DNA from: Escherichia coli
GTDB taxonomy: Bacteria > Pseudomonadota > Gammaproteobacteria > Enterobacterales > Enterobacteriaceae
Length of the DNA: 64,000 nucleotides
Direction: 5' to 3' (one strand)
Assembly: GCF_024298765.1 (NCBI RefSeq)
Contig: NZ_CP101210.1
Position numbers and translations under genes: made by a program
The notes under the pieces: model-generated
What the model was told of the DNA's origin: nothing
Seen by the model: only the letters and a program-made list of their open reading frames with translations
Databases searched by the model: none
Part shown: positions 52,851-52,882 of the stretch, piece by piece
How positions within the stretch are numbered: the stretch's first letter is position 1
Layout: each line of letters opens with the position of its first letter

Positions 52851-52882
52851 AGCATAGTCCTTCCCCTTACGGGAAGGTCAAG
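52851..52882 (-). promoter_or_regulatory. CueR operator / cueO promoter
   Basis: Minus strand reads cttgaccttcccgtaaggggaaggactatgct: a MerR-type dyad CCTTCCC...GGGAAGG embedded between a TTGACC -35 and a -10 with long spacer. Confidence 0.65.

Follow-up and report, generated by a model that had tools for sequence, protein, structure and literature searches.

CueR is a sensor of Cu(I), Ag(I) and Au(I) that belongs to the MerR family, and the cueO promoter controlled by it is said to have been described since 2000, by Outten et al. in that year and by Yamamoto and Ishihama in 2005. CueR controls both copA and cueO and acts at promoters with a 19-bp spacer (PMC8169799). The core of its binding site is CCTTCC-N7-GGAAGG (PMC8169799, citing Yamamoto & Ishihama 2005), and the consensus of the site has also been given as ACCTTCCC-(5)-TGGAAGGT (PMC1526738). 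The copA promoter (PcopA), whose inverted repeat overlaps the -35 element by 3 bp, is the CueR operator on which the structures were solved by crystallography and cryo-EM (PDB 4WLW, 4WLS; PMC8169799); in the cryo-EM activation complex the spacer is bent and under-twisted by the CueR dimer, with a -35/-10 distance close to that of a promoter with a 17-bp spacer (PMC8169799). A dyad placed within a spacer of 19-20 bp is found in other MerR-family promoters (PmerT/MerR, PzntA/ZntR and those of HmrR, CadR and PbrR) as it is in the cueO promoter (PcueO), and the regulators of this family act as dual repressors and activators by way of DNA distortion (PMC1526738, PMC8169799). In Escherichia coli K-12, control of cueO by CueR is established (PMC8169799, PMC9396075, PMC4507017, PMC1526738): the yacC-yacK divergon was listed in 2006 as bearing a CueR site within a promoter whose spacer is 19 nt long (PMC1526738), a PcueO-lacZ fusion has served as a CueR reporter (PMC9396075), and the part removed in a PcueO deletion has been described as the CueR operator site (PMC4507017). 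A full-text literature search with the literal operator sequence gave no match, and a literature search on HprR/CusR as a second regulator of cueO gave indirect statements on CusR cross-talk, which carry no site information.

Given this background, we examined a 64-kb stretch of E. coli DNA (hereafter the window), for which an earlier note had proposed that the cueO promoter contains a CueR operator of the MerR type. Our analysis leaves little doubt that the site at 52851-52882 is the sigma-70 promoter of cueO, with a CueR operator lying inside its 19-bp spacer. The assignment to CueR, in agreement with that proposal, is based on the presence of CueO downstream, the identity of the region with K-12 and the literature on the K-12 promoter, the exact match to the published core, and the register shared with PcopA. 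The features concerned are the following:

52851..52881, minus strand: core promoter PcueO, TTGACC-19 bp-TATGCT, by direct sequence reading
52881-52876, minus strand: -35 element TTGACC of PcueO
52875-52857, minus strand: spacer of PcueO, 19 bp
52856-52851, minus strand: -10 element TATGCT of PcueO
52859..52877, no strand: predicted CueR operator dyad CCTTCCC-N5-GGGAAGG (equivalent to CCTTCC-N7-GGAAGG), by inverted-repeat search
52842..52846, minus strand: zone where transcription is expected to start, 5-9 nt beyond the -10 element, placed by promoter geometry alone
52813..52817, minus strand: AAGGA resembling a Shine-Dalgarno sequence, 7 nt before the ATG of cueO, by direct reading
51255..52805, minus strand: cueO, multicopper oxidase CueO, 516 amino acids and stop (NF008205, Pfam, RefSeq)
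52722..52805, minus strand: Tat signal peptide region, CueO residues 1-28, with the twin-arginine motif RRDFLK in MQRRDFLK
51588..51737, minus strand: Met/His-rich insert of CueO, residues 357-406, by composition count
52971..53318, plus strand: yacC, pilotin-like lipoprotein, the divergent neighbour (NF037975 equivalog, 196.8 bits; RefSeq annotation)

Read on the minus strand, the interval 52851-52882 is C-TTGACC-TTCCCGTAAGGGGAAGGAC-TATGCT, and the plus-strand letters of the dyad at 52859-52877 are CCTTCCCCTTACGGGAAGG. The two arms of the dyad, CCTTCCC at 52859-52865 and GGGAAGG at 52871-52877, are 7 nt each, 100% complementary and separated by a gap of 5 nt; the earlier note had recognized the place and the arms correctly and had miscounted the gap by one base, giving N6 in place of N5. 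It had also described the dyad as lying between -35 and -10 elements with a long spacer, which agrees with the arrangement TTGACC-19 bp-TATGCT in this interval: the dyad is situated inside the PcueO spacer, which at 19 bp is supra-optimal, and overlaps the -35 element by 2 bp (or by 3 bp with the outer A at 52878). The site is 46 bp upstream of cueO, and a transcript beginning in the expected start zone at 52842-52846 would have a 5' UTR of about 37-41 nt. A sigma-70 promoter scan with spacers of 16-18 bp and a terminator scan, both run over 52600-53100, found no match; an empty promoter scan is what a spacer of 19 bp leads one to expect, and this result is not evidence against a promoter. The neighbourhood contains further small symmetries that are probably due to chance, namely AACGTT palindromes at 52844-52849 and 52937-52942 between cueO and yacC, and an inverted repeat, TTAAGAA/TTCTTAA, on either side of the cueO start codon (52784-52790 and 52819-52825).

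Comparison with K-12 MG1655 revealed that 196 nt, including the whole 165-bp intergenic region common to cueO and yacC, are 100% identical, and thus the experimental knowledge on the K-12 cueO promoter holds for the window sequence. The K-12 cueO (yacK) promoter has the same operator with zero differences, in the same orientation and with the same neighbours gcd, yacC, speE and speD; in the RefSeq annotation of the identical DNA the gene order is gcd, cueO, yacC, speE, speD, yacL and acnB. At the DNA level, E. coli strain N3 gives the best match to the promoter region, at 100%. The K-12 PcopA, TTGACCTTCCCCTTGCTGGAAGGTTTAACCT, shares with PcueO the -35 element TTGACC, the register of CCTTCC-N7-GGAAGG, the overlap of the dyad with the -35 element and the 19-bp spacer. 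The two promoters differ in the central 7 bp (CGTAAGG in PcueO against CCTTGCT in PcopA), in the -10 element (TATGCT against TTAACC/TAACCT) and in the outermost position of the dyad, which is a symmetric A...T in PcopA and A...A in PcueO. Moreover, in PcueO an inner C...G extends the dyad, unlike in PcopA.

The product of the downstream gene is assigned to CueO by the NCBIfam equivalog NF008205 with 980 bits (cut-off 525), contains the three Cu-oxidase (cupredoxin) Pfam domains PF07732, PF00394 and PF07731, and differs from the K-12 MG1655 protein by three substitutions (S271N, K291N and A464T). The Tat signal and the Met/His-rich insert that had been attributed to CueO are both recovered: the twin-arginine motif RRDFLK is seen near the N-terminus, where the Pfam TAT_signal model scores 21.1 bits (E=2.9e-4), slightly under its gathering score of 22.7, and residues 357-406 contain 13 Met and 7 His in 50 amino acids. 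What did not stand is the description of these elements as a complete copper-detoxification unit. Neither cueR nor copA has a match in the window (tblastn searches with K-12 CueR and CopA found nothing, with best E-values of 0.93 and 5.5 respectively), and in K-12 copA (508875-511379) and cueR (513993-514400) are located about 375 kb away from cueO (137083). The window holds a complete CueR-dependent transcription unit, comprising the operator-promoter, the AAGGA leader and monocistronic cueO, and the CueR sensor acts on PcueO in trans. At the other end of the gene, no terminator was found downstream of cueO by a simple consensus scan. A perfect 9-bp hairpin, ATGCCCGGA-N4-TCCGGGCAT, is present at 51213-51234, some 20 nt beyond the stop codon of cueO; it was not called by the terminator scan because it lacks a clear T-run, and it may be the cueO terminator. 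The gcd-cueO intergenic region also contains REP-type repeats at 51092-51190, for which the Rfam matches, to families derived from REP elements, are sub-threshold (naRNA4, 38.2 bits against a cut-off of 59.5; ES036, 31.7 against 37.6).

The anatomy of the site, its identity with K-12, its uniqueness and its conservation are results of the present analysis. As to uniqueness, the exact core CCTTCC-N7-GGAAGG has a single match on both strands of the 64 kb, against an expectation of 0.00 from 100 dinucleotide-preserving shuffles, and the composite pattern TTGACCTTCC-N7-GGAAGG-NN-TANNNT likewise matches the window once, with 0 expected. If two mismatches are allowed the core has 4 matches against 1.7 expected, such that the 3 others in the window are at chance level. 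For the motif scan that had been suggested in the earlier note, we used a weight matrix trained solely on 43 distinct non-Escherichia cueO promoters. The scan singled out the same site with 42.9 bits, against a background with a mean of -72 and a standard deviation of 15; the reverse-strand echo of the site scored 5.0 and the next unrelated match in the window -5.8. As a control, the same matrix recovered PcopA as the top match (34.7 bits) in the 8.5-kb copA-cueR region of K-12.

Within the species, 5424 of the 5426 complete E. coli genomes contain the 44-nt block at 52845-52888, which is identical in 5259 records and shows 1-2 differences in 165. A few E. coli plasmids also carry copies of the 5' end of cueO and the promoter block (52700-52888): the 361-nt query matched in 10 places and the 44-nt block in 3, an example being NZ_CP116983.1 with 95.5% identity across the first 155 nt. 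To extend the comparison beyond E. coli, orthologues were collected by an unbiased protein-based search for CueO relatives with one genome per species, which yielded 80 Enterobacteriaceae loci of 74-98% amino-acid identity, with representatives from Escherichia, Citrobacter, Salmonella, Enterobacter, Klebsiella, Raoultella, Kosakonia and Kluyvera, among other genera. A homologous promoter block was recovered in 79 of the 80, positioned 41-53 nt upstream of the start codon, and all 79 blocks align to the window without any indel and with a spacer of 19 bp. Among the 80 sequences made up of the window and these 79 loci, the -35 element is TTGACC in 77 and the -10 element is TATGCT or TAAGCT in 77. 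The information content rises sharply at the C before the -35 element and drops past the -10 element, the flanks being essentially unconserved.

Examination of the dyad itself in this alignment showed that the half-site overlapping the -35 element is nearly invariant across the orthologues. In the promoter-proximal half-site GGAGGG is the usual sequence, with GTAGGG, GCAGGG or GAAAGG in some cases, and the exact CCTTCC/GGAAGG core is kept in just 13 of 81 sequences. Loss of the dyad in an alignment, one of the observations that the earlier note had named as refuting the operator, is not what is seen: the proximal half is degenerate in most genera, yet the dyad is not lost (79/80). What is conserved is not the perfect palindrome as such, which belongs to Escherichia and a few other genera. 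Two-fold symmetry is seen in the invariant columns (C10/G28, T13/A25 and C15/G23), the pattern expected of a dimer that contacts the same bases in each half-site. The sole exception among the 80 loci is that of Intestinirhabdus alba (L076:1-2500), which has no CueR-type promoter: the promoter pattern found no match there even at 3 mismatches, and cueO is preceded by a gene for a methyl-accepting chemotaxis protein (79-1683) and about 810 bp of unrelated G+C-rich DNA. The cueO gene of this organism may be regulated differently.

These observations also bear on other interpretations of the dyad. All metal sensors of the MerR family are associated with a dyad within a 19-20 bp spacer, and a CueR paralogue whose sites are CueR-like occurs in Salmonella (PMC1526738); on these grounds the operator might be served by a MerR-type regulator other than CueR, for instance ZntR, SoxR or a GolS-like protein. 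We regard this as very improbable, because the PcueO half-sites constitute the exact CueR core, the register and the -35 element agree with those of CueR-bound PcopA, and the literature assigns the K-12 cueO, with its identical sequence, to CueR. The PcueO half-site ACCTTCC is CueR/HmrR-specific, whereas the half-sites of ZntR and MerR differ from it and the ZntR spacer is 20 bp. That the palindrome arose by chance in an ordinary constitutive promoter and has no part in regulation is, in our judgement, next to impossible. Short G+C-rich palindromes do arise by chance, as the three two-mismatch matches elsewhere in the window illustrate, but neither the exact core nor the composite pattern is expected even once, and a block that is free of indels in 79 of 80 loci, with a 19-bp spacer everywhere and diverged flanks, refutes this explanation.

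An inverted repeat of this kind might alternatively act as a nucleic-acid hairpin and not as a protein-binding site, for example as a DNA cruciform, or as a stem-loop in RNA, be it the leader of yacC or an antisense transcript. The 41-nt segment around it does fold into a 7-bp stem on either strand, with -15.2 and -13.2 kcal/mol (z = -2.7 and -2.1). However, when 8 putative pairs were evaluated over 63 distinct orthologous sequences, the covariation of the stem was no higher than in shuffles (0.077 versus 0.076, with 242 of 500 shuffles at least as high); of the 63 sequences, 33 lack pairing at the innermost pair and 18 at pair 14-24, and on the plus (yacC-sense) strand the commonest variant, GGAGGG, produces a C-A mismatch. 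No T-run or terminator-like site was found at the dyad in the scan of 52600-53100, and an Rfam scan of 51000-53400 gave no family match between cueO and yacC. On the cueO strand the element is situated upstream of where transcription is expected to start and hence falls outside the cueO mRNA. A hairpin would moreover leave the fixed 19-bp register relative to the -35 and -10 elements unexplained. We therefore rejected this reading, which we consider extremely improbable, since the stem shows no covariation and its pairs are often broken, despite a moderately stable fold. The combination of conserved half-sites and absence of compensatory covariation argues for a protein site rather than a hairpin.

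Taking the site as a CueR operator, the mechanism by which it would operate can be outlined from the literature, which is the source of both the CueR dependence of cueO and the distortion mechanism, the latter having been solved on PcopA. In PcueO, the distance between TTGACC and TATGCT is 2 bp too long and the two are out of phase, which would make RNA polymerase alone use the promoter poorly. The CueR dimer would sit on CCTTCC-N7-GGAAGG, on the face of the DNA opposite to RNA polymerase, and in its metal-free form would keep the DNA in a repressed shape. Upon binding Cu(I), it would kink and under-twist the spacer, thereby shortening the -35/-10 distance and re-phasing the two elements such that sigma-70 could engage both and cueO be transcribed. 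CueO itself would then be exported by the Tat system to the periplasm and oxidise Cu(I) there. By analogy with PcopA, we infer that the DNA-distortion mechanism holds at PcueO.

The back-to-back arrangement with yacC raises a further question, namely whether CueR distortion or occupancy also modulates the yacC promoter across the 165-bp region. We think this unlikely; if it were so, YacC, the pilotin-like lipoprotein, would belong to the copper regulon unnoticed. A moderately conserved A/T-rich block is situated immediately upstream of the cueO -35 element at 52904-52910, CAATAAT on the plus strand and ATTATTG on the minus strand, with the consensus TTTATTATTA in other genera. This block could serve either as the -10 element of the divergent yacC promoter or as an UP-like element of PcueO. 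The perfect palindrome would be derived in Escherichia and a few other genera, and the asymmetric GGAGGG proximal half-site kept by most genera could tune basal repression or dynamic range.

The site is already known, and no novelty attaches to it. Its main use is as a positive control, i.e. as a MerR-type promoter recognized from raw sequence alone. The alignment of the 79 promoters, while adding no new biology, illustrates the architectural constraint on such promoters, with no indel in the spacer, symmetric invariant positions and an asymmetric degeneracy of the proximal half-site.
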